Counted from the stretch's first letter, positions 13,623 through 61,454 are shown. The stretch is DNA of 64,000 nt from Candidatus Kaiserbacteria bacterium (GCA_026713605.1 JAPOOC010000007.1:59418-123417); one strand, 5' to 3'. The notes: generated from the sequence alone by a model not told the origin. Translations and numbers: made by a program.

Positions 13623-13634
13623 TATGTAATGTAA

Positions 13635-25849: not shown

Positions 25850-27520
25850 TTACGCCACCAGGTAAGGGACAATCTCGGTGGTGCCGAGGTGTTCCGCGGT
25901 CTGCCCGGGGGGCAGAATGCGGATGCGGGAGTTGAAGCCACGGTCGACTTCAAACTCCTCGGAGAGGGTCTTTCCGACTGGAATCGTCCGGAACAGAACC
26001 TCTTCCTCTTCGTCGTCTCTGATCTGGACGGCGAAGGTAATCTCCGTCTCCTGTGGCAGACGGAGAGAGATTGCATAGTAGGCGACCTCGTCATCCCCTC
26101 CGAGACGACGAGGTTCAAGGACGCAGCCGGACGCCCGTAAGGCATCCTTTACTGCATCCTGCAGCTCGCCGCATTGCGCAACAAGTGCTGATTTCTCAGC
26201 ATTCGCCGCCTCAAGGGCGACGCCGAGCTCGGTATTCTGCCGCTCAGCAGCGACGAGGGCGGAGAAGCGACGCTCAGCAGCAACCGCTTCAACTTCTGCT
26301 GATTCAGCGACTTTCGCCGCCTCATCAGCAGAAACTCTCGCCGCCACTTGTGCGGCCTCTGCCGCATCAAGATCTGCGGTCAAGGCAGAAACTTGCGTTT
26401 CTGCGTGCCGCAGGTCAGCAGCGAGGCGACCGATTGCAACATCGGCTTTCCGTGCCTCGCCGTTGAGGCGGCTGAGCCCTTCCGACGCCTCATCGTGTGC
26501 CGCCTCGGCATCAGAGAGGGCACTCGCAAGACCGTCGGCATCAAGAACCTTGACACCGTTTTCAATGGCCTTCGCTGCCGCTTCGGACGCCTGTTTCGCC
26601 TCAGCGAGAGCGGCCTCCGATGTAAGGGCGGCTTTCGCCGCCTCTTCAACGGCCTCCCAAGCGCTCTCAGCACCGCTGATAGCGTCTTGGTGGGCACCTT
26701 GTAGGTGCCCTTGTTCCGCCTCGGCGGTCTGCAGGGTACCCTGCAGAGCTACCACCTGCTGCTTTGCAGCAGCAAGGTTTGCCGTCGAAGCAGCAAGATC
26801 CGCCGCAGCAAGATCCGCCACCTTGCGCTCTTCAAAAGCGCTAAGGCGGACTTGCACGCCGGCAGCGTGCGCTTCCGCGCGCTCCGCATGCTCCCGCAGC
26901 GGAGTCGCGACGGCTTCTGCCGTCGCTTGTGCGGTCTCGGCAGCGTGCCGCGCTTCCACCGCTTCAGCGGCCGTTTTCTCGGCAACCGCCAAAGCATCGT
27001 TAGATGCTTGGAGGGCGCCTTCGATTTTGGCGATCTTGTCGTCTGTCACCTTGGCTTCCGCCTTAGCGGTTTCAACCGCCTCCTTGGCGACTTGAAGGTC
27101 CTTCTCCAGACCTTCAACGGTCGCCTCAGCGGCGTCAAGATCCTCTTCGGAGGACTCTAAGTCCTCCTCAAGACCCTTGATGTTCTCAAGGGTCTTGGGA
27201 TCCGGCGCCATGAGCTGCAACACCGGACCCACCATGGCTGCGATGATGAATACCACCGCTTCCATCTGGCCGAACACCAAAGAAGGTGTCCAGCCAAATC
27301 CGACAAATCCAGCCGCCAGAAGTAGGGCGAGCAGACCAAGGATCCCCCCTCCCATGCGGGGGAAAAACGAGTTTTCGTAACTCCGCACCATGATCAGTGC
27401 GGAACTTAGCAGCAGCAAAGCTGCTGCTGATACTGTCTGGGTTTCCGCATCAAGTGCGGAAAAGGCCACGACGGTCACCGCAGTGAGCATCAAGGCTGCG
27501 ATCGCAATCATTCTCTTCAT
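25850..27520 (-). CDS. Polytopic membrane-anchored, Ala/Glu-rich coiled-coil protein (unknown function)
   Basis: Start set at MKRMIAIAAL with strong SD AGGAGG (ORF track extends to 27646); ~4 TM segments, ~380 aa heptad-like Ala/Glu/Lys repeats, small C-terminal domain; locally much higher GC than neighbours. Confidence 0.65.
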   Translation of the reverse strand: MKRMIAIAALMLTAVTVVAFSALDAETQTVSAAALLLLSSALIMVRSYENSFFPRMGGGILGLLALLLAAGFVGFGWTPSLVFGQMEAVVFIIAAMVGPVLQLMAPDPKTLENIKGLEEDLESSEEDLDAAEATVEGLEKDLQVAKEAVETAKAEAKVTDDKIAKIEGALQASNDALAVAEKTAAEAVEARHAAETAQATAEAVATPLREHAERAEAHAAGVQVRLSAFEERKVADLAAADLAASTANLAAAKQQVVALQGTLQTAEAEQGHLQGAHQDAISGAESAWEAVEEAAKAALTSEAALAEAKQASEAAAKAIENGVKVLDADGLASALSDAEAAHDEASEGLSRLNGEARKADVAIGRLAADLRHAETQVSALTADLDAAEAAQVAARVSADEAAKVAESAEVEAVAAERRFSALVAAERQNTELGVALEAANAEKSALVAQCGELQDAVKDALRASGCVLEPRRLGGDDEVAYYAISLRLPQETEITFAVQIRDDEEEEVLFRTIPVGKTLSEEFEVDRGFNSRIRILPPGQTAEHLGTTEIVPYLVA

Positions 27521-27750
27521 TTCTTTTCCTCCTGGCAAGCACTCGCTTGCCATCTTTATGCCCTCTTCTCTTTGAGGAGGGCGAAGTTCTTTGTAATTTG
27601 TAATGTTCAAAGCGGGGGATATGCACAAAACCCCTACCTCCATCACAAATTATACATAATGATATAATATCATAAAACAGCAAAAAACGCAAGTTTCAAA
27701 GCCACCCCAAAAACAGCAAAAACACCTCTATCTTGAGGGGTTTTAAGTAC

Positions 27751-36844: not shown

Positions 36845-36894
36845 ATAGCCACCCGCCGTCACAAACAAAAACGCCATGCTACAATCAAGGTAGT

Positions 36895-37275
36895 ATGTTG
36901 TACACAACTATACTGACAGCGTTCACCCCCACTGCACATGCGGAATGCGGAGCCGGCGTTATTTTCTGCAACCCATTGGAATACGACACTGTCGGTGAAT
37001 TGTTGCTGGCATTAACAGACGGCATCACCATTATATTGATGCCCATCATCGTCCTCGCCATCGCCTACATCGGTTTCCGCATGGTACTCGCCGGAAAAGA
37101 AAAAAATGCCGACTACAGTAAGTGGAAAGACGCATTTGGGTGGTCACTGGTCGGCTTATTCCTTGTCCTTGGCGCGCGGGGCATTCTCTTTGTAATTCAA
37201 AACACCATCAACGATGTATTAGGAGATGAGTACCAGGTGGAGGTTGTAGAAAAAGCGCTGGAAGAGCAAGAATAA
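36895..37275 (+). CDS. VirB2/TrbC-like pilin paralog 1 (signal peptide, Cys pair, two TM helices)
   Basis: Signal peptide ...TPTAHA, ectodomain with 2 Cys, TM-(K/E-rich loop)-TM with conserved Trp in TM2; 126 aa. Confidence 0.5.
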   Translation: MLYTTILTAFTPTAHAECGAGVIFCNPLEYDTVGELLLALTDGITIILMPIIVLAIAYIGFRMVLAGKEKNADYSKWKDAFGWSLVGLFLVLGARGILFVIQNTINDVLGDEYQVEVVEKALEEQE

Positions 37276-37280
37276 AGAAT

Positions 37281-37628
37281 ATGAAAAAAAGTGTATATAC
37301 AAAAATACTGGCAATACCTCTGATCTGCAGTATGGCAGCGGGCGCAAGCAAAGCATACGCCCAGCCAACATGGGAGAATCTCTCGCTCAAAGGTATCGTA
37401 GACCTCGCCATCCAAGCGCTTGGCGGAGTACTTATACCACTTGCGGTAACAATCCTCTTCTTCGTATTTATATACGGCATCGTACTCTATATGCGCGCCG
37501 TAAGCAAAGGTGACAGCAACATGGCAGACCTCGCCAAGAAGCGCCTCCTCTATGGCATCATCGTCCTCTTCGCCGTTTCATCCCTTTGGGGCTTCGTGTA
37601 CCTCCTCCGCAACTTGTTCACCGGATAA
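37281..37628 (+). CDS. VirB2/TrbC-like pilin paralog 2
   Basis: Signal peptide ...SKAYA, then TM - basic loop (SKGDSNMADLAKKR) - TM with Trp; 115 aa. Confidence 0.5.
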   Translation: MKKSVYTKILAIPLICSMAAGASKAYAQPTWENLSLKGIVDLAIQALGGVLIPLAVTILFFVFIYGIVLYMRAVSKGDSNMADLAKKRLLYGIIVLFAVSSLWGFVYLLRNLFTG

Positions 37629-37632
37629 AGAA

Positions 37633-37665
37633 AACACCTAACACGACGATGGCGTGTTAGGTGTT
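37633..37665. terminator. 13-bp perfect palindrome between convergent genes (candidate bidirectional terminator, no U-tract)
   Basis: AACACCTAACACG-ACGATGG-CGTGTTAGGTGTT. Confidence 0.4.
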
Positions 37666-37683
37666 CAAAGGTAATAAAGATTG

Positions 37684-38232
37684 TTAAAAATGTTTCCCCC
37701 ACGAGAGCTTTCTCACCTCTCGCTTCAAATACTCTCCACAGCAAAGCGTTGCTCTACAGTGGGAGTGGGGGATCACATTACGGATACGCCGCTCTTTCTG
37801 CAACTGCCTCACCAGTGCATCCAGAGAGGCAACCTGTGCTTTAGTCGGCCGATGCTTTGAGAAGTCACCAGCCAAGCATACCGCAACGGAATGCTTGTTG
37901 ACACGCCAGTTACCGGCGTGGTGACCAACATCATCCGGGTCACGAACCTTCCACACCTTGCCGTTCGGTGTGATCAGGTAATGATAGGCAATGTGCAATC
38001 CGGCACTCTTGCCCATCTTCCGAAATTTCCGTCTGTGCAGACGGCTAATTTCTGCCGTCACCTGCTTGATGTCATTGCTTGCCACACCAGCGGTGTGGTG
38101 CACCACAATAGTCGTGATGGCACGGCGCGTACCACCAAGTAATGAATCGCCTCCTCTGCGCGCACCGCCACAGCCATACAGCCAAAAAGCGGTGGCAATA
38201 CAAAACAGGAAAAAGAAAACAAATTTCCTCAT
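37684..38232 (-). CDS. N-acetylmuramoyl-L-alanine amidase (Amidase_2/PGRP domain) lipoprotein
   Basis: Start set at MRKFVFFFLFCIATAFWLYGC (lipobox LYGC); Amidase_2 motifs VVHHTAGV...HHAGNW...HSVAVCLAGDF; 182 aa. Confidence 0.8.
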   Translation of the reverse strand: MRKFVFFFLFCIATAFWLYGCGGARRGGDSLLGGTRRAITTIVVHHTAGVASNDIKQVTAEISRLHRRKFRKMGKSAGLHIAYHYLITPNGKVWKVRDPDDVGHHAGNWRVNKHSVAVCLAGDFSKHRPTKAQVASLDALVRQLQKERRIRNVIPHSHCRATLCCGEYLKREVRKLSWGKHF

Positions 38233-38299
38233 ATTGAGAACCTCCTCGAATTCAAACCCACACCATGTACTTACATAATAAAGCAAAGATAGATGGTGT

Positions 38300-38742
38300 G
38301 TCAATAAAAAAGCGCACAATGGATTAGTATGCCCATGTGTGCGCTAAAAGAAGAATACCCCGACACAGTGTCGGGGTATTATGGTTGATCCAATTATAAT
38401 TTACTCTTTACTTCCCTGCACGATGGCTGGTCGATAGAAAGTGCGAGGTCAGTGGCGTTGGCGCGCCCTTCCTGATGCACTTAGCAAGGGAGTTTTTTTC
38501 AAATATAAAAATTCAATCACGGGAATAAGTGAGCCAGAGAACCATCACTTATTGATCACCTATGATCTAGGATCTGACGGGGAGCATGATCTTCTCCATC
38601 TGAGGATCTTTCGGTGCAAAGCCATGAGCACCTATTCAATCATCAGCAGACAGGAAAACCATCTCGGCATCAAATCCTGTGGTAGGGAGCAGGGTCCTGA
38701 AACGCAGGATTACCTCACGTCTCCCGACCACTGATAGCACTA
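38300..38742 (-). ncRNA. Candidate ~440-nt non-coding transcript defined by promoter and twin terminators
   Basis: Minus-strand promoter TTGACA (38772-38777) - 17 nt - TATAGT (38749-38754); two consecutive minus-strand intrinsic terminators at 38356-38383 and 38311-38343 (the latter followed by U6AUU); no ORF >20 aa on that strand; many internal hairpins. Confidence 0.4.
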
Positions 38743-38748
38743 TAGCAC

Positions 38749-38777
38749 TTGCCGTTCTTTTTGTCAACCCTATGATA
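38749..38777 (-). promoter_or_regulatory. Near-consensus sigma-70-type promoter on the minus strand
   Basis: -35 TTGACA, 17-nt spacer, -10 TATAGT (read on minus strand). Confidence 0.5.
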
Positions 38778-38879
38778 TAACTACACTACCAGCAAGATTA
38801 TTTGTAAAATATGCGGTAGAAAAGCAAAGGATTTTTAAGAAAATCACCCGCAATTTTTTCCACATACCTGTTTCAAGAT

Positions 38880-39458
38880 GTGAAAAAGCAGGGTATACTC
38901 AAAATAAGTATGAGTAGTATACACAACCGCAAAACAATAAGCAAGGTCTTGTACGGTGCGGGCATTATCATCATAAGCATAGCATTCCTTTTCACTACCT
39001 CACAGTATGTAGCACATGCCCATACAGGCACAAACTTTGCAGCCATTGAACACTGTGCGGGATCTGACACACATGTACACCCATCAGTAAGTGATACACC
39101 CATATGTAGCGGGACTTTAACCTATGCAATAAGCAACTTTTACGAAGGGGCAAATGTGTTTGCGGCTCTCCTACAGACATTGGTAGGCATTGTGGTAACC
39201 GCCGCATTCTTTTACTTTTTCTGGAATTTGGTCAAATATATCCGAGATGAGGAAGGGAAAGACGAGGCAAAAACCAAGATGGGCTATTCATTAGGGGCAA
39301 TTTTTGTCATTGTAACGCTGTGGGGCATTATTGCCTTTGTGCGGGGAATTTTAGGAATTAATACCGAAGATGCAGTTAACACTATTGATATACCCAGAGT
39401 AAACTTCATTAAGGATGATGGCACGGTAATAGAAGAGATTACAGTAGAAGAAGAATAG
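38880..39458 (+). CDS. VirB2/TrbC-like pilin paralog 3
   Basis: Long signal/TM leader ...VAHAHT, ectodomain with 2 Cys, TM (AAFFYFFWNLVKYIR) - charged loop - TM (LGAIFVIVTLWGII); true start may be Met at 38910. Confidence 0.5.
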   Translation: MKKQGILKISMSSIHNRKTISKVLYGAGIIIISIAFLFTTSQYVAHAHTGTNFAAIEHCAGSDTHVHPSVSDTPICSGTLTYAISNFYEGANVFAALLQTLVGIVVTAAFFYFFWNLVKYIRDEEGKDEAKTKMGYSLGAIFVIVTLWGIIAFVRGILGINTEDAVNTIDIPRVNFIKDDGTVIEEITVEEE

Positions 39459-39467
39459 TTCGTAACC

Positions 39468-39821
39468 ATGCTAATATTCTCGTACGGTACGGTTTTTGCA
39501 GACACAGCGAATGAAAGCTCTGCGTTGCAAGAGGTAAATAGGGTGCTGAACCTATTTGATAGTTTTTCTGTAGTGATAGAAGTGCTGATCGTCATAGTCA
39601 CAATCCTTGTTTTCTTGTACTTTTTCTGGGGTTTAGTAGAGTATATTCGCAAAAACGATGCGACACTTGAGGAGGCAAAAAAAAAGATTGCGTGGGGAGT
39701 GTTAGGGATATTTGTATTAGTGAGTATGTGGGGACTGATTTACTCCCTCCGCATCTCAGTGCTCGGCTCAAAAGACACCCCAGATCCAAATATAGAATTC
39801 CGAAAAGTAGAGTCGCTCTAA
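39468..39821 (+). CDS. VirB2/TrbC-like pilin paralog 4
   Basis: TM (LVFLYFFWGLVEYIR) - loop (KNDATLEEAKKK) - TM (IAWGVLGIFVLVSMWGLI); closest to paralog 3. Confidence 0.5.
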   Translation: MLIFSYGTVFADTANESSALQEVNRVLNLFDSFSVVIEVLIVIVTILVFLYFFWGLVEYIRKNDATLEEAKKKIAWGVLGIFVLVSMWGLIYSLRISVLGSKDTPDPNIEFRKVESL

Positions 39822-39850
39822 CCGCATAAAACCCGGTATACTAAACCTAT

Positions 39851-40156
39851 ATGCTCACATACGCCCTCTCAGCAAAAGAAATAGCCAACAACCTCTTTGA
39901 CCACATCGTCAACCCGCTAATGGCAGGCATGCTCTTCATCGCCATCCTCTTTTTCATCATCATCGCGGTAAAACTCATAGCTGGCGCAGAATCAACGGAA
40001 AGAAAAGACCTCTTCACCAAGCTCGGCTGGAGTATTGCTGGCATTTTCATCATCACCTCCGTCTGGACCATCATCGCTTTTGTCAGCAGGGTAGCAGAGT
40101 CAGACATCAAAACATCCCTATACCACTCCGCAGAAATCGCACCACAGTTGACATAA
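39851..40156 (+). CDS. VirB2/TrbC-like pilin paralog 5
   Basis: TM (MLFIAILFFIIIAVKLIAG) - loop (AESTERKDLFTK) - TM (LGWSIAGIFIITSVWTII); 101 aa. Confidence 0.5.
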   Translation: MLTYALSAKEIANNLFDHIVNPLMAGMLFIAILFFIIIAVKLIAGAESTERKDLFTKLGWSIAGIFIITSVWTIIAFVSRVAESDIKTSLYHSAEIAPQLT

Positions 40157-40229: not shown

Positions 40230-40739
40230 ATGGAGGAAAGAATGAAAAAGTTAATGAGAAACCTAGCCATGGCAGTAGTCATGGCAGCGGCGATACTCGC
40301 CGCTGGCTGCGGGACCACCACTGAGGTGGTAGAGGTCCCGGTAGAGATTACGACCTCTCCCACGGAAACGACGGAAGTTGTTGAGATCCCGAACAGGGAG
40401 CTCGACTTAAGCGTTACGGTCGACCAGGCCGTAACAATCACCGCCGCGACGGCGGTTGGCCTCCAGCACCACCAGGCCCCGGAGATCGGCAAAATCGACT
40501 CCCGGACCAAGCGTCCGGTGAAACTCACAGTGATCGGGTCGGACTCGCTTCACGCAAAATCCGATTCGCGCGTAATCGGAGCCCCCAAACACGGGTTCCG
40601 GATCGGCGAGGACACATTGGTCAACCTTGGCGACACGGACCGGGAAACCGATGTTCGCGTCAGGGCGAACTTTGACCACCAGTATTCTGGCGGGTCAAAG
40701 GTTATAGGAGCCCCCAAACCGGCGCTCAAAGTCGACTAA
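40230..40739 (+). CDS. Lipoprotein with internal duplicated module
   Basis: Lipobox AAGC after signal peptide; duplicated VIGAPK(H/P)(G/A)(F/L)(R/K)(I/V) C-terminal modules; GC-rich. Confidence 0.55.
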   Translation: MEERMKKLMRNLAMAVVMAAAILAAGCGTTTEVVEVPVEITTSPTETTEVVEIPNRELDLSVTVDQAVTITAATAVGLQHHQAPEIGKIDSRTKRPVKLTVIGSDSLHAKSDSRVIGAPKHGFRIGEDTLVNLGDTDRETDVRVRANFDHQYSGGSKVIGAPKPALKVD

Positions 40740-40762
40740 CCCTTTCCCCTTTCCCTATCGCT

Positions 40763-40812
40763 CTGAGAAAATGCATAGTTTTCTATGTTTTCTCAGGGCG
40801 ATTTTTTATTGC
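40763..40812 (+). terminator. Rho-independent terminator of lipoprotein gene
   Basis: Long hairpin CTGAGAAAATGCATAG-TTT-CTATGTTTTCTCAG then GGCGATTTTTTATT. Confidence 0.65.
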
Positions 40813-40869
40813 CCAAAATAAAAAATGGTACACAGGTTTCACTTGCATTGGGGTGATGCTTATAAAAAT

Positions 40870-40897
40870 TTGACAAATCATTTTTTTTGAGTATCAT
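40870..40897 (+). promoter_or_regulatory. Candidate promoter for 40929 gene
   Basis: TTGACA - 16 nt - TATCAT, then SD AGGAGA 9 nt before ATG. Confidence 0.45.
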
Positions 40898-40928
40898 AAC
40901 TGTTGGCTGGTCTTAGGAGAATACAAGA

Positions 40929-41792
40929 ATGACTTTTTTGAAGAGAATCGCAACTTTCGCCGCAACTTTCGCAGTCGTGCTCGCACTCACAGCTCCGACC
41001 TTCGCCGTTGATGGCGTGTCCTTTGGGACAACCGCCACCGAGGAAACCGCCGAGGCCGCTGAGGCCGCTCAGGCCGACGAGAAGTCGGGTAACGGCGTCA
41101 ACGACATTGACGTTGACTACAAATCAGAGATAAAATTCGAGGAAGGCGCCATTGGCACCTTCGAGGGTACCAAGGACGCTGCAAAAACCATCGCAGCGAT
41201 CAACGATCCTGCAATAAAGCGCTACGCCCTTCAGGGCATAGTGTACTCCCAAGGTCAGATGAGTGTAGAAAACGCCTACCGGGAACTCCAAGACGGAGAC
41301 CGGAAGGCGATCAATGCAGCGATCAGCTCCAACGACAAGATCGTTAGAGCGCTCACGATTGCAGCATCAGACGCAACTCTGCCGTTGGCGAAGGTGGATC
41401 GTATCCTTCAAAGTATTGAGGGATATGCGATGGCAAACACGTACCTGCTTGCCAAGTTAGGAACGACCAAGGTCGTTTCGAACGAAGGCGGCACCACCCC
41501 CAACCCCTTCAACGAGGGGAATGGACTTGACCTTGCGCATGTAATCGTGTTTGCAGGTCTCGTGATTCTCGCTTGGATCGCGGGAAACAGAGTCCTTGCA
41601 TGGGCGAAGGTCCAGAAGGAAAAGTTGGCTGCAAAGAAAAAAGCCAAAGAAGCCGAAGAAACCGCCGCGAAAGACGCGCTTCGCGAGAAGCGCGCCCGCG
41701 AAACCGGCGGCACCTCACGCAACCGCAACCGCAACCGCAACCGAAACCGCGGTGCGGAAGAAGCAGCCACCTCCGAGGTGGTAGAAGCTTAG
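40929..41792 (+). CDS. Secreted surface protein with C-terminal TM anchor and (Asn-Arg)n cytoplasmic tail
   Basis: Signal peptide ...APTFAVDG; C-terminal TM LAHVIVFAGLVILAWIAG; tail KKKAKEAEE...NRNRNRNRNRG. Confidence 0.55.
   Translation: MTFLKRIATFAATFAVVLALTAPTFAVDGVSFGTTATEETAEAAEAAQADEKSGNGVNDIDVDYKSEIKFEEGAIGTFEGTKDAAKTIAAINDPAIKRYALQGIVYSQGQMSVENAYRELQDGDRKAINAAISSNDKIVRALTIAASDATLPLAKVDRILQSIEGYAMANTYLLAKLGTTKVVSNEGGTTPNPFNEGNGLDLAHVIVFAGLVILAWIAGNRVLAWAKVQKEKLAAKKKAKEAEETAAKDALREKRARETGGTSRNRNRNRNRNRGAEEAATSEVVEA
41719..41748 (+). repeat. Hexanucleotide microsatellite (CAACCG)x4-5 inside the 40929 CDS
   Basis: caaccgcaaccgcaaccgcaaccgaaaccg encodes NRNRNRNRNR. Confidence 0.8.
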
Positions 41793-41835
41793 ATCTTTCA
41801 TCGGCACCTCCCTCCCAGAGGTTCGGTGCCACTAC

Positions 41836-41868
41836 ATGCCTCCTGCATTTGCAGGAGGCATTTTTTTA
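41836..41868 (+). terminator. Rho-independent terminator
   Basis: ATGCCTCCTGCA-TT-TGCAGGAGGCAT followed by T7. Confidence 0.8.
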
Positions 41869-42091
41869 TACACTAAAAAACCTTGAAACAAAAGGACATT
41901 TTGAATATACGGGCTATACGGGTACACTACCGACAGGGTGCCAGCAAAACAATTTGACAAAATCTACTTAAAATGGTATATTATAAAAAGAAATCGCTTT
42001 CTGTGCGATCCATATAAAATAATACTCATCGTTATTTTATATGGGTCGCGCACATAACGGCGACTCAATAGTTTACAATTCAAAAAAAAAA

Positions 42092-42132
42092 CTCCCGCAA
42101 CAGCGGGAATAAATTCCCGCTGTTGCGGGGGA
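42092..42132. promoter_or_regulatory. ~19-bp GC-rich perfect hairpin immediately 5' of the SD of gene 42142 (A10 upstream, so also a terminator-like structure when read on the minus strand)
   Basis: CTCCCGCAACAGCGGGAA-TAAA-TTCCCGCTGTTGCGGGGG, then GAGGAAGAAAAATG. Confidence 0.5.
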
Positions 42133-42141
42133 GGAAGAAAA

Positions 42142-43902
42142 ATGAAATTTTTTTTAATGATTGTTGGCGTGGCATTAGTAATTTCCCCGTTCGCCTTGAA
42201 GGCGTGGAACGGGGAAGAGGTTCCCATCCCCGGACTCAACGGCCTCATTGAGGCCATCCGCGACGACGCCACCGAGGCCGACGAAGCAACCGAAGAGGCC
42301 ACTAAAGCGGCCGAGAGAGAGGGAGAACTTTCCTTCTCCCGCATGATGCTGGAGCGGGATGTGAAGCGGATTTCGGCGTTTGAGAACGCCGACGGGTACT
42401 TGGTTACCCGCAGCGACGAGGAGTACAAAGACCTCGCCGCCGCCCTCTCTCGCTTCCGCCTCACCTCTGATAGTGCCAAGAAGGCACTTGATGAGGCGAG
42501 GGGGAAGAGGGGGTACCCCCTCTTTTTCTCCATCGCCCTCGGCGAGGCGGTGGAGGAAGAACCCTTCCTCCAAGTTGTCGGAACGGCGACGATCGAGTGG
42601 TGCAGGTCACGAGAAGAGGCCTATCCGCTCCCCAAAGGTGTGAATTGGTTTACGGTCGGGGCGAACCCGCTCGTGACCCGCGGAGAAATCGAAACTCCCT
42701 CGTTCAGAACAATGAGGGAATTCGTCGCGGCGGAAATCGCTCCCATCGTCGACTCTGCCGACGGTGAGGCGTTAGTCGCCGCCGCAATAGCGGGGAGAAA
42801 GGCGGACCTCGAATTTTTCGGAGTCCAAACGGCCCCCGGGATCATGTCTGCCAAGATTTGGCGGACATATAAAGGGGAAACGGAGGAGCGCATCCCCGCG
42901 GTGCGGTTCCTCCCGTTCATAGAGTCGCGTGCAATCAGCACGCATCCGGCCCATGCCGAGGTGAGGTACAAGTTCGCCGAGGCAATAGACCTCGACCCCG
43001 ACCGCCTCGAAGAGGCGTTGAAGGGGGTGGTCGAAAAGACCGATTCCCGCCGGGCACTCGTCACCTACTGGCCACACCGGCAGGAGCTGAGGGTAGAAGT
43101 GCCCTCAGCATTCACCGACGTGGTGATACGTGTACTCTCTCCAGAGTCCTTGTGGAGAGAGGCCTACAGGGTCGCTTCGGCGACCATGGGCGTTCAGGCG
43201 TCCATCCCTGATCTTGAATTGGAGATCTTAGAAGACCTTGGTCGATATCATGTCGATCAGGGTAAGAAGATCCACCACCACGAGGACTTCCCCGAGAGGT
43301 TTGTGTGTTTGACGCAGGAGAGTAAGTCAGGTGTTGAGGGTAAGATTATTTCTTACCGAGACGCCCAAACACTCCTCCCACGGGAGGGAATCTTGAACGC
43401 TGCCCAACTGCAGGCAGCAATCCAACGAGTGTTGGATCAAGATCCTGAGAGGTCACATTTCGAGTTTGGGTGCCTCCAAACGAGAGAAGAGATCATGGAT
43501 CTCTTCTCTCAGTATCAGTCGGGTTTTGAAAACCCAGCTGACGCATTCCCGTGCCATATGGGATATGACTACACGACGCGTCGTGTAATCATGTTCCAGC
43601 GGATTCAGCAGGACAGACCTGCTGAAACTGCGGACGCCGTCGGGGGAGAGAAACCCTTGGCGTCATACGGAGTAAAAAACTTCAGCGAAAAATCTCTCAA
43701 GGAATTGAGAGAAATGATCGCTGAAGAACACGGAATCACCCTCGCCATCGACGGAGGCGAGGCGAGGTCCTTGGCCTTGAGTATAATAAAGGCCAAAGGT
43801 CTCCCCGTCAAGATACGGGGAGACAAAATTGAGGGCGGTCACGCCCTCATCCATGTAATTTCCTCAAAGAAAATTAGCATGGATGTGGTTGCAGATGAGT
43901 AG
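42142..43902 (+). CDS. Large secreted protein of unknown function
   Basis: Signal peptide MKFFLMIVGVALVISPFALKA; 586 aa; GC-rich; no recognised family. Confidence 0.6.
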   Translation: MKFFLMIVGVALVISPFALKAWNGEEVPIPGLNGLIEAIRDDATEADEATEEATKAAEREGELSFSRMMLERDVKRISAFENADGYLVTRSDEEYKDLAAALSRFRLTSDSAKKALDEARGKRGYPLFFSIALGEAVEEEPFLQVVGTATIEWCRSREEAYPLPKGVNWFTVGANPLVTRGEIETPSFRTMREFVAAEIAPIVDSADGEALVAAAIAGRKADLEFFGVQTAPGIMSAKIWRTYKGETEERIPAVRFLPFIESRAISTHPAHAEVRYKFAEAIDLDPDRLEEALKGVVEKTDSRRALVTYWPHRQELRVEVPSAFTDVVIRVLSPESLWREAYRVASATMGVQASIPDLELEILEDLGRYHVDQGKKIHHHEDFPERFVCLTQESKSGVEGKIISYRDAQTLLPREGILNAAQLQAAIQRVLDQDPERSHFEFGCLQTREEIMDLFSQYQSGFENPADAFPCHMGYDYTTRRVIMFQRIQQDRPAETADAVGGEKPLASYGVKNFSEKSLKELREMIAEEHGITLAIDGGEARSLALSIIKAKGLPVKIRGDKIEGGHALIHVISSKKISMDVVADE

Positions 43903-44163
43903 TTTCGTCTGCAATCCCACGCCCAACAGAGCGTGAACAGAATCTGTTATAGTTTGAGGGGTTCTATTAAAAAAACTCCTTCTATCGCAAACTGATACCG
44001 TTTGCCTGATGAGTCCATGGTAGGACGAAATAGATACATTGACAATCTTGGAAGCAGCATAGTCCACATATCATGATAGTACTACGGTCATGGTATGTGG
44101 GCTATGGTGCCCAAAAAAAACGCCGCCGAGGGTTTCGGTGGCATGATCTGGTTGAAGTTACAC

Positions 44164-44185
44164 CCCGGCTCCGCCGGGAAAGGAG
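44164..44185 (+). promoter_or_regulatory. Conserved 5'-UTR hairpin + SD motif (copy 1)
   Basis: CCCGGCTCCGCCGGG hairpin then AAAGGAG, ATG 6 nt later; near-identical to 48436-48457. Confidence 0.5.
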
Positions 44186-44191
44186 CAAAAA

Positions 44192-44743
44192 ATGAAAGGT
44201 TTAATTTTCATCATCACGGCAGCTATGGCACTGCTCATGACCACGGTCGCCGACGCAGAGTCGGCAAGTAGCATCTCGGTCTGGCGGGTAGAACCACCCG
44301 CCAAGGAAAAAACCAGAAAAACATACACCGTCCCTGAGACGGATGTTAATATCACGATCGAAGACAAGATCGTGGTTGAAAGTGGGGGCGTGGTGCTTGA
44401 CGCACCACGCCCAAAGGACCCGAAAGAAATGATACGGGTGACCGCAGACCTTACGGCTGCGGTCATGCAGCGGGTCGCCGTCAAAGCGGAGACGCCTCCC
44501 AAGGAGGAAACATCCCCTAAAGAGGTCCCAGCTGAGAAGGTGGAACCGACACCCACGGCCCCGGCAACTCCAAAGGTAGACGCTCGCGATAGCAGCGTCT
44601 ACTATGCCGAGGGGAATGTCAATGTGCACAACAACAATGTGCACATTGGCGGCGGGAAAGGGAAGCGGAAGATAACCGTCCGTCGGCGGTACTTCCGAAC
44701 TGAACCCGCCGTCCGGGGGTTTGGCGCAGTCGGGCTGCGCTAA
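44192..44743 (+). CDS. Secreted protein of unknown function
   Basis: Signal peptide MKGLIFIITAAMALLMTTVADA; Pro/Glu/Thr-rich linker; 183 aa. Confidence 0.55.
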   Translation: MKGLIFIITAAMALLMTTVADAESASSISVWRVEPPAKEKTRKTYTVPETDVNITIEDKIVVESGGVVLDAPRPKDPKEMIRVTADLTAAVMQRVAVKAETPPKEETSPKEVPAEKVEPTPTAPATPKVDARDSSVYYAEGNVNVHNNNVHIGGGKGKRKITVRRRYFRTEPAVRGFGAVGLR

Positions 44744-44760
44744 CCCGCAAGGTCTTTGAT

Positions 44761-44799
44761 GGCACCGATTCAGCAATGAATCGGTGCCATTTATTTTTT
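44761..44799 (+). terminator. Rho-independent terminator
   Basis: 12-bp stem GGCACCGATTCA-GCAA-TGAATCGGTGCC then ATTTATTTTTT. Confidence 0.85.
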
Positions 44800-44819
44800 A
44801 AGGGTGTATCCCACAAAAA

Positions 44820-44848
44820 TTGCCAAAACAGGAGAAGTGGGGTATAAT
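44820..44848 (+). promoter_or_regulatory. Candidate promoter for 44885 gene
   Basis: TTGCCA - 17 nt - TATAAT. Confidence 0.5.
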
Positions 44849-44884
44849 ATAAAGTAAATTGATGTTTACGAAGGGGGGAAGGAA

Positions 44885-45481
44885 ATGAAGTTCCTTGCAC
44901 TGCTACTAGCAATCTCCTCGCTATCATTTGCCAGCGCAGAAGCAAACGATAGCGCGGTGTTTCTAACGCTACCTGGCTTTGAGGAAAAAGTCGGTGTGGC
45001 GTTTGACGCGAAAGAGGTAGAGATGGTCGCAGTGTACCGTGGTAACAATCTCTACCTCCGCCCACTCAGCAGGAAATTGCGACTGCTGCTGGGAAAAGAA
45101 AAGGCAGTCGCCACCAAAACCCTCTCTCTGCCAAACCTCATCAGGGATGAGGCGGCACGAGGGAAGGGGGAAACCCCCGCACTGCTGATCTCCGAGCGGG
45201 CATTTGGTAAGCCCGCCGACACCTTCCTTTTGCGTGTGAAAGGGAAGGTGATCAGTGGGAGGTTTCCCAAGGAAAAGGGTAACCAGTCCCAAGTAGGGGT
45301 GGCACTCTTCATGGGGAAGAAAGGGGTGCACCTCTACTGCCTCTACGTCTCAGAAGAAAGTGTAGAGGTTAACTTCCGCACACTCACCGAGCGGCAGTAC
45401 AAAGCTGCGAAGAAGAGTGTTGCGGAGAAGTTGAAGGCCGCCGGGCAGAAAAAGGCGGCAAAAAAGGTGGGTGACCTTTAG
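44885..45481 (+). CDS. Secreted protein of unknown function
   Basis: Signal peptide MKFLALLLAISSLSFASAEA; 198 aa; strong SD GGGGGGAAGGAAATG. Confidence 0.55.
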   Translation: MKFLALLLAISSLSFASAEANDSAVFLTLPGFEEKVGVAFDAKEVEMVAVYRGNNLYLRPLSRKLRLLLGKEKAVATKTLSLPNLIRDEAARGKGETPALLISERAFGKPADTFLLRVKGKVISGRFPKEKGNQSQVGVALFMGKKGVHLYCLYVSEESVEVNFRTLTERQYKAAKKSVAEKLKAAGQKKAAKKVGDL

Positions 45482-45485
45482 CACA

Positions 45486-45529
45486 AACAGCATACCGTTG
45501 TAAAACGGTGTGCTGTTTTTATTTTTCTG
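45486..45529 (+). terminator. Rho-independent terminator
   Basis: AACAGCATACCGTT-GTAA-AACGGTGTGCTGTT then TTTTATTTTT. Confidence 0.8.
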
Positions 45530-45550
45530 TGGCAAAATATCAGTAATCCA

Positions 45551-45624
45551 GGCGTGGTAGCCAAGTGGTAAGGCAGGGGTTTGCAAAACCTCTATACGCG
45601 GGTTCGATTCCCGCCCACGCCTCC
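45551..45624 (+). tRNA. tRNA-Cys (anticodon GCA)
   Basis: Acceptor GGCGTGG/CCACGCC, anticodon loop UUGCAAA, T-arm GCGGG-TTCGATT-CCCGC. Confidence 0.85.
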
Positions 45625-45634
45625 TGTGCATAAT

Positions 45635-45662
45635 TTGACTTTTCATGGTAGATTGATACACT
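45635..45662 (+). promoter_or_regulatory. Candidate promoter for 45669 gene
   Basis: TTGACT - 16 nt - TACACT immediately after tRNA-Cys. Confidence 0.4.
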
Positions 45663-45668
45663 AATTTT

Positions 45669-46292
45669 ATGGTTACCTATGCACAAGAGGTGGCAGAAAC
45701 GCTCGCCACATCAGGTGGGTCGGAGGGTTTATTTATCCTGAGTATCATAATAAACATCATCGCTTTGGCATTCGGATCTGGCAGATTGTTCAATGAAATA
45801 AAAAATACAAAATCTGAAGTTGCAAGCATGAGCGGGCGATTAGACAAGCAAGGAGAAAAGATAGATCGGGTGGCAGAAGGGCTTGCCGAAATCCGCGGAT
45901 CTTTTCTTGTGTTCAAAGAAGCGGTTGCCACACAGCAGTCAAGTCCGTTAACCTTAACAAAGCGGGGTGAAGAAATTTTACAGAAAAGTGGTGGCGATAC
46001 CATACTGAAAAACCTCTTTGAAGATCTGTACTCGCGATTTGAAGGAGTCACAAATGCGTATGATATACAGCGAAGGGCGAGGCAGGTGATCGAGGATTTG
46101 TTTGATGAAGGAGAAAAATTAGAGTTAGTGAAAAATTATCTGTATAACGAAAAAGAGAATCACAAAACGGTTGTGGATGTGTTGGGGATTGAGCTACGAG
46201 ATATGGTATTTGAACGACGAGGTATGCCGATAAAAAAACGGGAAAAAGAGCCAGAGCCATCCGTTGTGCGGGATGAGGTGCAGAGAGTATAG
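45669..46292 (+). CDS. Hypothetical single-pass membrane protein
   Basis: One TM (LFILSIIINIIALAF) then coiled-coil-like soluble region; 207 aa. Confidence 0.45.
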   Translation: MVTYAQEVAETLATSGGSEGLFILSIIINIIALAFGSGRLFNEIKNTKSEVASMSGRLDKQGEKIDRVAEGLAEIRGSFLVFKEAVATQQSSPLTLTKRGEEILQKSGGDTILKNLFEDLYSRFEGVTNAYDIQRRARQVIEDLFDEGEKLELVKNYLYNEKENHKTVVDVLGIELRDMVFERRGMPIKKREKEPEPSVVRDEVQRV

Positions 46293-48463: not shown

Positions 48464-49489
48464 ATGAAAACCTTCTTATTTTTCTGCCTCGCCGTGTCCC
48501 TAGGTGCATTCCTGGGGCTGTTCGACGGCGAGGCACCCACATCTCCCTCTCCCAGCAGGGAGGGGAGAATTGCCACCACCATCAAGAGAATTGAGCGGGT
48601 GGTGGTAAAGACAAGGCGTCAAAAAAAGGCGCCAGCAAAACTCCCTGCCAGCGAGCGGGGGGTAGTCGGTGCGGCCAAAAAGATAGGGCCGCACACCAGC
48701 ATCCCAGAAGAGGTGTTGGTGGGGATTGCCGAACAGGAAACACAGTTCGGCAAAAACTTCGGAAAAGCGGGGCGCGCGCTCAATCGCGCGCGCTCAATCA
48801 AGGAGCAAGCGCTCCTTGCGTTTGTCGCGGCGGAAAGAGGGGTGTCCATTGAGCAAATGGAGACATCCACTTCTGCGGCGTTCGGGCTGACACAGGCCAG
48901 ACCGTCGCTATATCTTGCCCATTGCGGGCTGGAGGTGCAGTTCGGAAAAACCCCAACCGTCCTTCTGCACGGGACACAGGCATACCGCAGTATGTCCCGC
49001 GCAGAAAGATCCGCTGGGATCAGAGAGATCCAGCGGAAGTTGGGGATGAAAAAAGTTGATGGGCTGATCGGCCCGTCAACATTAGAGGCGATCGAGGAAA
49101 AGGTCGGTCGCAGGGCTTTTGACAAGGTAGCGAAATACCTCCTGGTCAAAAAGTACTATGGTAACCACGTGAAATTGGTTACCAGCAAAGAGCGCGACAA
49201 GGTTTTTCAAAGAATCTGTCGCGCGGAAAGAAGAGATCCGGTGAGAACGAAGTATTTCTTGCCAGACCTCTGGAACCCGGTGCACGCTCTGGCATACACC
49301 AGCGTGCATCTGGAGGACGACCTCCGCATAGCGAAGAGATCGTCCAAGCGGGAAGATTCCGCAGTAGATGTGGCAATTGCCGCGTATTACTGTGGAATCA
49401 AATCTGCCCTGAACCGCAACCCTGACGGGCTGTGGTATCAGAGGCAAGTGAAGGCAAAGGCAGGGAAATTTAAAACTGTCTTTGCTTAA
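48464..49489 (+). CDS. Secreted cell-wall-associated protein with PG_binding_1-like peptidoglycan-binding domain
   Basis: Signal peptide; IREIQRKLGMKKVDGLIGPSTLEAI resembles PGBD helix-pair motif; 341 aa. Confidence 0.5.
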   Translation: MKTFLFFCLAVSLGAFLGLFDGEAPTSPSPSREGRIATTIKRIERVVVKTRRQKKAPAKLPASERGVVGAAKKIGPHTSIPEEVLVGIAEQETQFGKNFGKAGRALNRARSIKEQALLAFVAAERGVSIEQMETSTSAAFGLTQARPSLYLAHCGLEVQFGKTPTVLLHGTQAYRSMSRAERSAGIREIQRKLGMKKVDGLIGPSTLEAIEEKVGRRAFDKVAKYLLVKKYYGNHVKLVTSKERDKVFQRICRAERRDPVRTKYFLPDLWNPVHALAYTSVHLEDDLRIAKRSSKREDSAVDVAIAAYYCGIKSALNRNPDGLWYQRQVKAKAGKFKTVFA

Positions 49490-53154: not shown

Positions 53155-53392
53155 ACAACCTCCATGGGATTACTCCCGCTGGTTCCTAAGACCAGTGCGT
53201 CTACCCGCGCCGGCAATCTCTGATTGACGCTGACTATCAGTCGCCGCCTGTGGCGGAATTGCTTGTGCCGAGGAGAGGGCTTGAACCTCCATGGGATTAC
53301 TCCCGCTGGTTCCTAAAACCAGTGCGTCTACCCGTGCCGGCAATCTCTGATTGACGCTGACTATCAGTCGCCACCTGTGGCGGAATTGCTTG
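53155..53392 (-). repeat. Two tandem ~126-bp units, each = 3' two-thirds of tRNA-Leu(UAG) fused to a palindrome-bearing spacer
   Basis: Units at 53155-53206(+spacer) and 53266-53332(+spacer) match the anticodon/variable/T-arm/3' acceptor of the adjacent full tRNA but lack the 5' acceptor and D-stem; 4 SNPs between units. Confidence 0.8.
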
Positions 53393-53478
<86 letters not shown>

Positions 53479-53479
53479 G

Positions 53480-53552
53480 TCCGCCCGCTAGGACTCGAAC
53501 CTAGGACCCACCGGTTAAGAGCCGGTTGCTCTACCAACTGAGCTACGGGCGG
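53480..53552 (-). tRNA. tRNA-Lys (anticodon CUU)
   Basis: RC: CCGCCCG-TA-GCTC-AGTTGGTA-GAGC-A-ACCGG-CTCTTAA-CCGGT-GGGTC-CTAGG-TTCGAGT-CCTAG-CGGGCGG-A. Confidence 0.85.
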
Positions 53553-53630
53553 AGGGAATCTTTTTCATTCTTGTGAATGATGTCTCCAGTATGCCACAAA
53601 ACCAATGTAAAATTGCTATACTACACTATA

Positions 53631-53711
53631 GCCGGAGTGGCGGAACTGGTATACGCGCACGACTTAAAATCGTGTACCTCTGGTATGCGGGTTCGACTCC
53701 CGCCTCCGGCA
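53631..53711 (+). tRNA. tRNA-Leu (anticodon UAA), long variable arm
   Basis: GCCGGAG-TG-GCG-GAACTGGTATA-CGC-G-CACGA-CTTAAAA-TCGTG-variable-GCGGG-TTCGACT-CCCGC-CTCCGGC-A. Confidence 0.85.
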
Positions 53712-53961
53712 CTTGTTAGTTCCGCCACCCGTGGCGTCTAGTATTCTGCACCAATCAGAGATTGGTGGCACGGGTATACGCGCACGACTTAAAATCGTGT
53801 ACCTCTGGTATGCGGGTTCGACCCCCGCCTCCGGCACTTGTTAGTTCCGCCACCCGTGGCGTCTAGTATTCTGCACCAATCAGAGATTGGTGGCACGGGT
53901 ATACGCGCACGACTTAAAATCGTGTACCTCTGGTATGCGGGTTCGACTCCCGCCTTCGGCA
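53712..53961 (+). repeat. Two tandem ~120-bp units, each = conserved spacer + 3' two-thirds of tRNA-Leu(UAA)
   Basis: Spacer CTTGTTAGTTCCGCCACCCGTGGCGTCTAGTATTCTGCACCAATCAGAGATTGGTG then GCACGGGTATACGCGCACGACTTAAAATCGTG...CCTCCGGCA; second unit carries an acceptor SNP (CCTTCGGCA). Confidence 0.8.
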
Positions 53962-54125
53962 CAGCAAAAAACACCACACCCCCACAAAATTACTTCATTA
54001 ACAGCATCGTTTTCCCACCACCACCCTTTTCTCCATCCCACACTTCGCAAGGTAACAAAGCGGGGGATCACCACCTGTCCTCACTAGAACTTAGGTATAA
54101 TTTTCAATGTTATACTTTAAATATC

Positions 54126-55364
54126 ATGTCAGTTACTCAAGTGGGTGTAAAAACAGATGGTCAGAGATTCCTCTTTGGCGATGTTTATCCTGATCTAAGT
54201 GTGAAACCAAAAAATATTGAAACAGAAGGTATAAAATATATTGGTTCAAAAAAAGAGATACTTCCTAAAATTTTGCTAATACTTGCATTATTAAGAAAGC
54301 AAACCAGCATCAAAACTATTTTAGACGGCTTTTCTGGTTCAACGAGAGTCACGCAAATGCTAGCAAAAAGTGGTTTTGATGTACTATCAAACGATACTGC
54401 CATTTACTCAAGAATCTTTGCAGAATGTTATTTAATGACAAAGAAAAATAAAGAATATTATGCCAAGAAAATTGAAAAGTTAAATGTTTTAGAAGGTAAG
54501 AGCGGCTGGTTTTCAAAACATTACGGAGGAACTGATAATGACGGGTTGTCAGTGGGGGATGATGGAAAGAAAAAGATGTGGCAATTACATAATACAAAAA
54601 AGCTTGATGCAGTACTAGAAGCCATACATGCAGAACAAGATGAGCAGGATAAAAATGTACTCCTCACCTCCCTAATTTTAGGACTTGATAAGGTTGACAG
54701 CTCTCTCGGGCATCAAGTTTCGTATCTTAAAGAGTGGGCAAAGAGGTCTTATAATGAGTTAGCGTTAAAAGTTCCCAATTATTTTATCAACAGCGGGAAT
54801 CATGCGGTTTATAATAAAGACATTTTTGAATTAATTAATGAAATTGACGTTGATGTGGCGTATTATGATCCGCCCTACTGTTCAAATAATGAAAAAATGC
54901 CAGCATCGCGTGTCAGATATAATTCTTATTACCATATATGGACATCAATTTGTTTAAATGATATTCCAGAAGTTTTTGGCGCATGTAACCGAAGATTAGA
55001 TACCAGTGATAAAACGGCGATATCAGTATTTGAAGAATTTAGAAAAGATACAGAAACAGATGATTATATCACCACCTTGAAAATAAAGGAATTGATACAA
55101 AAAACTAGTGCAAAGTTTATTATATTCTCATATTCAAGCAGTGGTCGTACAGATAAAAAAAGTTTTAAAAGAATATTAAATGAGTTGGGATTAAATTTTT
55201 TATTCTATGAATTTAATTACAAAAAAAATATTATGCACGCCTTAAAGTCCACCAATGAATGGGTAAATGAGCAGGGGAATAGGGAATACTTGATTGTCAT
55301 AGATAAATATGGAGTGCTTGACTTGGAAAAAGTAGAAAAAGGATTAACATCCACACCTCTTTAA
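54126..55364 (+). CDS. Dam-family (D12 class, alpha-type) N6-adenine DNA methyltransferase
   Basis: N-terminal IKYIGSKKEILPKIL (Dam motif X), motif I ILDGFSGSTRV, motif IV YYDPPY; AT-rich codon usage; start trimmed from ORF-track 53838, which runs into the tRNA repeat array. Confidence 0.8.
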   Translation: MSVTQVGVKTDGQRFLFGDVYPDLSVKPKNIETEGIKYIGSKKEILPKILLILALLRKQTSIKTILDGFSGSTRVTQMLAKSGFDVLSNDTAIYSRIFAECYLMTKKNKEYYAKKIEKLNVLEGKSGWFSKHYGGTDNDGLSVGDDGKKKMWQLHNTKKLDAVLEAIHAEQDEQDKNVLLTSLILGLDKVDSSLGHQVSYLKEWAKRSYNELALKVPNYFINSGNHAVYNKDIFELINEIDVDVAYYDPPYCSNNEKMPASRVRYNSYYHIWTSICLNDIPEVFGACNRRLDTSDKTAISVFEEFRKDTETDDYITTLKIKELIQKTSAKFIIFSYSSSGRTDKKSFKRILNELGLNFLFYEFNYKKNIMHALKSTNEWVNEQGNREYLIVIDKYGVLDLEKVEKGLTSTPL

Positions 55365-56129: not shown

Positions 56130-56142
56130 TTACCCTACAAGG

Positions 56143-56225
56143 TGCGCCGGGCAGGATTCGAACCTGCGGAGCCTTTCGGCGATGGGTTTACAGCCCATTG
56201 CAATTGACCACTCTGCCACCGACGC
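56143..56225 (-). tRNA. tRNA-Tyr (anticodon GUA), long variable arm
   Basis: RC: GCGTCGG...ATGGG-CTGTAAA-CCCAT-long variable arm-GCAGG-TTCGAAT-CCTGC-CCGGCGC-A. Confidence 0.8.
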
Positions 56226-61167: not shown

Positions 61168-61401
61168 TCATAGCATCTTCAATATCCTCGCCCAAGCAGG
61201 ATAACCCTTCATTTTGCAGAAGTCACCGAGTTTTGTTTCAAAAGGTATATCCATGGCAATCCCGTATTTTTTTGCAATAACACCAACTTTCGTATCATAA
61301 TTGTACACCTCCTTCACCAAGCTCTTTTTTCTTGCTCCACTCGCACCAGTTTTTTTTACTATTTGCGCTACCTTCTTTTTCATGTCAAAAGTATACCACA
61401 C
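61168..61401 (-). CDS. Hypothetical small basic protein
   Basis: 77-aa ORF between the ATPase gene and ileS; no family recognised. Confidence 0.3.
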   Translation of the reverse strand: MWYTFDMKKKVAQIVKKTGASGARKKSLVKEVYNYDTKVGVIAKKYGIAMDIPFETKLGDFCKMKGYPAWARILKML

Positions 61402-61454
61402 ATCAAATCTTTCAAGAGATTTCTATACAATGCGTGTGGTACAATACCGATATT

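Follow-up and report, generated by a model that had tools for sequence, protein, structure and literature searches.

A five-gene VirB2-like pilin array, interrupted by an amidase gene and a candidate structured RNA, in a Candidatus Kaiserbacteria chromosome

The stretch of DNA under study, hereafter the window, is 64,000 nucleotides (nt) from a Candidatus Kaiserbacteria bacterium (GCA_026713605.1, JAPOOC010000007.1:59418-123417), an ultra-small member of the Patescibacteria whose lineage falls in the GTDB class Paceibacteria. A profile search across 5.8 billion proteins traced the window to a metagenome-assembled genome of that name, on a contig of 128,029 bp with locus tags OXB96_017xx. A large part of bacterial diversity belongs to the Patescibacteria, which spend their lives attached to other cells. 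On the plus strand of the window, between positions 36895 and 40156, lie five small paralogous genes that we call pilins A to E, and we believe, with a probability of about 0.7, that they constitute a VirB2-like pilin array serving a Patescibacteria type IV secretion system (T4SS). This locus is a Patescibacteria VirB2 array as defined in the literature, that is, at least two PF04956 or PF18895 genes of a Patescibacteria genome that adjoin in tandem or have a single non-pilin gene between them (PMC12102498): pilins A and B are followed by an amidase gene and then by pilins C, D and E. Since VirB2 arrays have been published, the pilin-array interpretation appears correct, but the class itself is already known, and the cluster is annotated in part in GenBank. 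The residual novelty is the fixed set of five subunits, its separation from virB4, and the embedded candidate RNA gene, which is unannotated and is one new item in a cluster of a described class.

Pilin genes and their family

All five pilin genes encode variations on one small architecture. Pilin A (36895-37275, 126 amino acids, aa) combines a 16-aa leader ending AHA/EC with a two-Cys ectodomain, a two-helix hairpin and an acidic tail, and pilin B (37281-37628, 115 aa), which begins 5 nt 3' of A, has a canonical signal peptide followed by the hairpin. Pilin C (38880-39458, 192 aa) carries a long signal peptide, an ectodomain of ~45 aa containing His and Cys, the hairpin and an acidic tail; its start codon is GTG, and an internal ATG would yield 182 aa. 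Pilin D (39468-39821, 117 aa) has an 11-aa leader ahead of its hairpin, and pilin E (39851-40156, 101 aa) consists of the hairpin and a leaderless N-terminus that is 82% conserved across orthologues. Hydropathy reveals two hydrophobic segments with a short K/E-rich loop between them in every one of the five, and an AlphaFold2 model of pilin A places helices at residues 33-66 and 74-108, with a pLDDT of 81-91 in the hairpin. The two hydrophobic helices and short charged loop that characterize VirB2-like pilins are therefore present in all five (by hydropathy, and in A by the model as well), and each product is a small helical hairpin of the inner membrane whose short cytoplasmic loop is positively charged.

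The earlier note on this DNA had described five open reading frames of 101-192 aa, all of which lie where it put them, and had ascribed a common architecture to them. The hairpin and the K/E-rich loop are indeed common to all, whereas a canonical signal peptide is clear in B and C only: the leaders of A and D are short and lack a basic n-region, and E has none. The pair of Cys reported for two ectodomains is present in A and C. Of the sequence motifs said to recur, FFxFFWxLVxYIR in the first transmembrane (TM) segment is confined to C and D, and the Trp of the second TM segment is found in B to E but is absent from A. The paralogy of the five genes is well founded, given pairwise identities of 16-37% within the window, cross-genome BLASTP matches between pilin types (B-D 1e-14, C-D 5e-14, E-C 2e-11 and A-E 1e-5) and a common Pfam model. 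When a profile built from the five sequences was run against the window translated in all six frames, no sixth copy appeared, and the best remaining match reached 7.7 bits.

The family assignment rests principally on PF18895 (T4SS_pilin), which is matched by all five products with E-values of 2e-9 to 4e-4; three exceed its gathering threshold of 26.6 bits (A 37.7, D 30.3 and E 27.9 bits). On sequence grounds, the five genes are anciently duplicated members of this T4SS_pilin family. NCBI annotates pilin A as 'pilin' (MCY4577142.1), whereas D is a 'hypothetical protein OXB96_01775' and E is also 'hypothetical'. Together with the absence of any match to a PHROG holin family among the five and the existence of published VirB2 arrays, these results uphold the view that the genes encode VirB2/TrbC-type T4SS pilins and not holins or type IV pilus pilins; a match to a holin or bacteriocin-immunity family, together with a genome lacking a VirB4-type ATPase, was what the earlier note had said would refute it. 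The family is very large, comprising 29,964 cluster representatives (50% identity) at E<=1e-3, and, because of Patescibacteria, PF18895 is reported to be the Pfam domain that dominates freshwater-specific protein clusters (bioRxiv 10.1101/2025.04.23.650224). As a separate observation, many database proteins of 200-820 aa (P0116, P0120, P0128, P0172 and others) hold 2-8 tandem pilin modules per polypeptide, and these may be either genuine poly-pilin fusions or gene-calling read-through of packed arrays.

Arrays of this kind were surveyed by Quinonero-Coronel et al. (2025), who screened 3,035 Patescibacteria genomes using the PF04956 and PF18895 models and found VirB2 arrays in 383 assemblies, with 2-11 genes at ~25% identity that are at times split by a non-pilin gene; VirB2-like genes lie near virB4 in 1,135 of 1,948 assemblies and away from it in 813 (PMC12102498). 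With these arrays, including the 'Sec secreted array' of TM7x, our locus shares PF18895, tandem paralogues of comparable divergence, a non-pilin interruption, a chromosomal site with no relaxase nearby and a monoderm host with an ultra-small genome. It differs in that the interruption is made up of an Amidase_2 gene and a candidate structured RNA gene, and in that one-to-one orthology is demonstrated here. In Southlakia epibionticum ML1, the T4SS locus SEML1_0006-0019, which is essential, houses a pilin array (Wang et al. 2023, PMC10633639), and this array is essential too (PMC10633639; PMC12857230). That array lies inside the virB4 cluster, whereas the one in the window lies between gyrA and infB without T4SS genes. 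A T4SS with a pilin array is thus essential in the sole genetically manipulable Patescibacteria species, and the present locus adds a Paceibacteria example in which the array stands apart from the genes for the secretion ATPase.

Two further families invite comparison. The VirB2/TrbC/TraA pilins (PF04956; Agrobacterium T-pilin, RP4 TrbC and F TraA) resemble the window proteins in their small size, in having a leader in most copies, in the two hydrophobic helices with a short basic loop and termini predicted to lie outside, and in the weak TrbC match of pilin A. In contrast, the window proteins score below the PF04956 threshold, have no detectable sequence or fold match to solved pilins, come from a monoderm host, include the leaderless E and have no adjacent virB3 or virB4. 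The Mbov_0395 family of Mycoplasma integrative and conjugative elements (NF045849) likewise consists of pilin-like two-TM proteins from a wall-less or monoderm MPF-FATA-type system, but the matches of all five pilins to this NCBIfam model are weak (16-28 bits) and fall under its curated 40-bit cut-off, so they are not members.

F and T pili provide the established basis for a pilin topology with the termini outside and the loop cytoplasmic or luminal. By analogy with these pili, the arrangement of variable termini around a conserved core in the window proteins fits a VirB2 topology. According to this view, the pilins would enter the membrane via Sec or YidC with both termini outside, and signal peptidase would trim the leaders of those that have one. 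Extraction of the subunits would then fall to a monoderm-type (MPF-FATA-like) T4SS powered by VirB4 and encoded at another place in the genome, and on polymerization they would form a surface filament or a conduit for host-cell contact. The five types are likely to be distinct subunits, such as a major pilin accompanied by several minor or tip pilins, with their variable termini exposed outside, and these termini thus mark the likely host-facing parts of the pilins. The amidase may open the cell wall locally, and would be dispensable for the array as such.

A number of observations weigh against a pilin array of this type. Pilins B and C fall under the PF18895 gathering threshold (B 23.0 bits, E 8.6e-5; C 20.7 bits, E 4.4e-4), yet BLASTP ties both of them to D. 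The PF04956 TrbC/VirB2 threshold of 27.9 bits is reached by none of the products: this model is the second-best match of A at 22.4 bits, gives 15.2 bits for E and does not match B, C or D. PF04956, which the earlier note had proposed for searching, stays below threshold throughout, and PF18895 is the model that all five match. Solved VirB2, TraA or TrbC pilins were retrieved by neither sequence-profile nor fold searches, and because a two-helix hairpin is a generic fold, fold searches cannot separate a pilin from other helical hairpins. The lack of a leader in pilin E is a departure from known VirB2 pilins. No VirB4, VirB6, VirB3 or VirB8 was found among the large open reading frames scanned in the window, no T4SS genes occur in the 36 kb upstream of the array or the 24 kb downstream of it, and no virB4 lies within ~20 coding sequences of the pilins, the distance by which a T4SS locus is recognized. 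The absence of VirB4, VirB6 and VirB3 from the 64 kb is consistent with the earlier note's suggestion of a core machinery encoded beyond the window. Of 3,035 Patescibacteria assemblies, 2,417 have VirB4, and in Paceibacteria virB4 is usually located near dnaA/dnaN (PMC12102498), which the window does not include. Among the 11 Kaiserbacteria rows in the accessible part of Table S1 of that survey, VirB4 is 'Yes' in seven, and the remaining four of 11, listed without VirB4, also count against a T4SS-linked array (PMC12102498). Finally, in the studies considered here no pilus of this family is reported to have been visualised in any Patescibacterium.

In light of these points, the proteins of the PF18895 family might instead stay in the membrane as small structural subunits of the monoderm T4SS channel or of an unrelated envelope complex, forming a five-type hetero-oligomer with no extracellular pilus. 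Gram-positive-type T4SSs generally lack pili (PMC12102498; PMC10633639), the array is unlinked to virB4 in the window, the strict one-to-one conservation of the five paralogues described below would fit fixed stoichiometric parts of a machine, and fold searches would not tell such subunits from pilins. We nevertheless consider this alternative unlikely given the family-level similarity to pilins (PF18895, with TrbC second-best) and the presence of variable termini around a conserved hairpin, which suit surface exposure better than burial in a channel.

Conservation of the five-gene set

The array belongs to the core chromosome, where it sits between gyrA and infB. It is organized as two units, A-B and C-D-E, with the convergent amidase gene and the candidate small RNA gene between them. 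The syntenic block, which reads gyrA, an SBP-like gene, A, B, the amidase gene (minus strand), a gap, C, D, E, five or six genes for unannotated secreted proteins, a tRNA gene and infB, recurs in related contigs of 0.49-0.85 Mb (loci L001-L009, L041 and L043), among them the closed genome OY764332.1 (696,550 bp), which carries the orthologous array. A promoter-like site is located 5' of pilin A (36858-36885), and a 14-bp hairpin (37632-37666, not assigned to a strand) in the space between pilin B and the amidase gene, whose stop codons face each other, is probably a bidirectional terminator.

Comparison with genomes whose GyrA is 84-91% identical revealed exactly one orthologue per genome for each of the five pilins in at least six related genomes. 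Orthologue identities are 62-80% for A, 68-84% for B, 41-71% for C, 41-66% for D and 66-86% for E, or 41-86% overall, as opposed to the 16-37% that separates the paralogues. Conservation is concentrated in the hairpins (61-88%), with the leaders and C-terminal tails at only 21-50%; in pilin C, for example, the hairpin is 80% identical among orthologues, the ectodomain 32% and the tail 26%, and Cys-rich extensions have been gained in relatives. The presence of one orthologue per genome for every pilin indicates that the five-gene set predates these genomes and that all copies have been retained. Furthermore, the maintenance of five types in a one-to-one fashion, with conserved hairpins and variable termini, argues for five distinct, non-redundant subunits rather than a fast-turnover antigenic repertoire. 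Because they are fixed and orthologous, the five pilin types can be treated as distinct subunits when a filament is modelled or imaged.

The same comparison bears on the possibility that the paralogues provide for antigenic or host-range variation, with alternative pilins being expressed or swapped, as has been proposed for the VirB2 paralogues of Bartonella and Anaplasma and suggested for Patescibacteria (PMC12102498). Like our locus, the arrays of Bartonella and Anaplasma phagocytophilum consist of tandem, divergent VirB2-like genes in a host-dependent bacterium, and the low identity of the pilin C ectodomain and tail between related genomes, along with C-terminal Cys-rich extensions that come and go, would be in keeping with a repertoire. 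However, whereas those arrays are read as variation repertoires, the set described here does not change between genomes and consists of orthologues: in at least six of them the five genes agree in copy number, order and identity, orthologues are much closer to one another than paralogues are, and the window holds no recent duplications, repeats or silent cassettes. A fixed set without cassettes points to subfunctionalised subunits and not to a rapidly turning-over family. We therefore think variation improbable as the purpose of the array, and the earlier note's suggestion of antigenic or functional variation conflicts with the strict one-to-one orthology of all five pilins.

A holin-endolysin lysis cassette, which the earlier note had itself disfavoured, or a bacteriocin/immunity cluster left by a prophage can be dismissed as a very improbable origin of the locus. 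In its favour, the amidase matches phage amidase/endolysin families at the domain level (phrog_822, E 4e-22) and small two-TM proteins resemble class II holins. Against it, none of the five pilins matches a PHROG holin family, no phage genes lie nearby, the block keeps its core-chromosome place between gyrA and infB in many genomes, the array of a relative (L042) has no amidase, and an amidase with its own export signal and putative lipobox would not need a holin.

The amidase gene and a candidate structured RNA

The gene that separates pilin B from pilin C encodes an Amidase_2/PGRP-type N-acetylmuramoyl-L-alanine amidase (37684-38232, minus strand; PF01510, 79.6 bits). It is convergent with A-B and is followed by a 650-bp gap before pilin C. 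The product is 182 aa long when counted from the ATG, with the reading frame extending to a TTG at 38319, and it aligns with PGRP and T7 lysozyme chains such that the HH...H...C positions (His/His/Cys zinc site) are matched. Its signal peptide ends in LYGC, which is probably a lipobox and would make the enzyme a lipoprotein, and a promoter-like site precedes the gene at 38304-38275. A lipoprotein amidase within the cluster, as the earlier note described it, is thus confirmed as regards the gene and probable as regards the lipobox, with the qualification that the gene is on the minus strand and faces A-B.

The amidase gene is kept in the same place and on the same strand in L001-L006, L008, L009, L041 and L043, but it is absent from L042. 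There, at 5001-7639 of a 121-kb contig, the pilin genes are contiguous after gyrA and the SBP-like gene, and the promoter of the RNA described below is also missing. The L042 arrangement suggests that the amidase is an accessory insertion and not an obligatory part of the array, and because the RNA promoter is missing as well, the amidase and RNA genes seem to have entered the array together as one insertion.

VirB1 itself and the corresponding enzymes of monoderms belong to the lytic transglycosylases or to the CHAP enzymes. The window amidase has in common with VirB1-type hydrolases that a peptidoglycan hydrolase gene lies within a pilin or T4SS cluster, but it is a zinc amidase of the PGRP/T7-lysozyme type, its gene lies on the strand opposite the pilins, and one related array lacks it. 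The VirB1-like role that had been assigned to it was purely inferential and sits poorly with its orientation, its own promoter-like site and its absence from L042. Eight kb downstream of the array, a secreted protein (48464-49489) gives weak matches to SLT_2 (lytic transglycosylase) and PG_binding_3, both sub-threshold; if these matches are taken at face value, it would be a closer analogue of VirB1 than the amidase is.

The gap between the amidase gene and pilin C most likely contains an unannotated structured RNA of ~385 nt (38345-38732, minus strand), the candidate status of which is based on its fold z-score and covariation. The region ends in a terminator hairpin (38380-38354) followed by a T-run, and its minimum free energy of -135.6 kcal/mol compares with -107.6 +/- 6.0 kcal/mol for shuffled sequences (z = -4.66). 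In an alignment of six distinct homologues, 22 of 72 consensus pairs have changed on both sides with pairing kept, and 93% of the cells are paired. Column shuffles yielded 10.0 +/- 2.1 such pairs, with 0 of 500 reaching 22, and slid-register controls yielded 2-5. With support that comes from six sequences, some of them closely related, the RNA remains a candidate.

Searches of the region for known elements were negative. Rfam 15 gave nothing at the gathering score and only chance-level matches in a permissive search (E >= 0.55), ARAGORN found no tmRNA, and no conserved open reading frame is evident in the region. Neither Rfam nor ARAGORN supported an identity as a ydaO (c-di-AMP) riboswitch, T-box, RNase P, tmRNA, 6S or signal recognition particle RNA, and these were set aside. 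The covariance model built on the 3' domain (R1) matches the RNA in a subclade only, comprising the window, L003/L031, L009, L008, L007 and L041. In L004, L005, L006, L034 and L043 the promoter is kept in place, the ~350 nt downstream are unalignable and the R1 model is silent, reflecting either fast evolution of the RNA or a different RNA under the same promoter. A metagenome pattern scan for the RNA gave no matches.

The promoter in question is a sigma-70 site with an extended -10, GGGTTGACAA-N14-TGCTATAGTG (38738-38770, minus strand; TTGACA / 17 nt / TGcTATAGT). It is the sole block that is invariant in all of the aligned gaps between the amidase gene and pilin C, has a perfect -35 and a score of 11/12, and is present as a single, identically placed copy in each locus. 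We predict that it drives the ~385-nt RNA. The same pattern also precedes unrelated sequences in many phyla, so by itself it is a consensus strong promoter and not a marker of this RNA. An adjacent invariant element on the plus strand, TGATATAAC, may serve as the extended -10 of the pilin C-D-E operon. The RNA could be a stand-alone small RNA, or else it could form a leader of the amidase gene with a built-in terminator; in L006, ~40 nt separate the end of the T-run from the amidase start. One possibility is that the RNA, whose promoter is back-to-back with the C-D-E operon, could couple wall remodelling to pilin expression.

To our knowledge, almost no non-coding RNAs have been described in Patescibacteria. 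With its perfectly conserved promoter and its covariation, the embedded RNA is a candidate, open to test, for an RNA of regulatory or structural function that is specific to the lineage. A more ambitious proposal, in which the five paralogues build a fixed hetero-oligomeric surface structure (a major subunit plus minor or tip subunits with hypervariable termini) and the ~385-nt RNA at the same time defines a new RNA class, is tentative, and as a conjunction we would doubt that it holds in full.

A VirD4-like ATPase and other genes of the window

The earlier note had drawn attention to a VirD4/TraG-like ATPase at 58.4 kb. A P-loop ATPase resembling VirD4 and other type IV coupling proteins (T4CPs) is indeed encoded at 58448-61090 (plus strand, 880 aa, with the ATPase part at residues ~1-400), and it exceeds the threshold for TrwB_AAD_bind (29.9 bits, gathering threshold 20.5) and matches DUF87 at 37.8 bits. 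The relationship is a distant one, however: TraG-D_C is below threshold, the alignment with TrwB (1e9r) is limited to the P-loop region (E 2e-4), and every NCBIfam TraD/VirD4 model scores far under its cut-off. The protein opens at the P-loop without an N-terminal TM anchor and ends in a low-complexity tail of ~480 aa rich in K, Q, E, R and P, where the local AT skew reaches 0.86. Its gene is 18 kb from the array, behind housekeeping genes. Thus it appears to be a distant, soluble VirD4-like protein that is unlinked to the array. Homologues of T4CPs are near-universal in Patescibacteria, at ~2 per genome, and are rarely found near virB4, and that of Southlakia is non-essential (PMC12102498). 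For a protein so distant and anchorless, belonging to a group so common and so rarely near virB4, we see little bearing on the array. The long open reading frame at 61.4-64.0 kb was considered as a possible VirB4 and rejected, as it encodes an aminoacyl-tRNA synthetase, most likely IleRS by sequence. The IleRS-like frame (61401-64000, plus strand, running off the end of the window) has an apparent inserted histidine-phosphatase (PGAM-like, 'RHG') domain.

Immediately downstream of pilin E, six predicted secreted or membrane-anchored proteins of 169, 287, 586, 183, 198 and 207 aa are encoded on the plus strand (40230-46292). Their genes are syntenic and fast-evolving, have similar sizes and the same place in relatives, and have a G+C content of 0.51-0.54; none of the six proteins matches a Pfam, NCBIfam or PHROG family. 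The 586-aa protein has six homologues only and a poor AlphaFold2 model (pLDDT 52), and the 287-aa protein has a C-terminal TM anchor followed by an RNRNRNRNRNR tail. Possibly these genes belong to the same surface module as the pilins.

The remainder of the window has the content of a core chromosome, with genes for PilB, RuvB, PBP1, DnaK/DnaJ, a type IV pilin, two RNase J proteins, sigma-70, Pif1, FtsZ/FtsA, LepB, S1, GyrA, IF-2, ClpB, RsmI and the truncated aminoacyl-tRNA synthetase. The type IV pilus pilin that had been placed at 10816 is confirmed by an N_methyl match. A tRNA cluster at 53392-56225 includes three tandem tRNA-Leu(taa) genes according to ARAGORN, one of which is confirmed by Rfam. 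Next to it is a stretch of low G+C (0.34) with genes for a D12 N6-adenine methyltransferase and for a 261-aa protein lacking annotation; a tRNA-Tyr gene marks the end, and the region looks like an integrated restriction-modification islet. On the minus strand, 25850-27646, within a patch of 0.57 G+C, encodes a protein of 598 aa in which four TM segments at the N-terminus are combined with a long coiled coil rich in Ala and Glu; it has no family match, and a similar-sized gene is present at the same position in relatives. The two RNase J genes are adjacent paralogues (11700-15416, minus strand), the second of which gives no detectable match to the metallo-beta-lactamase domain.

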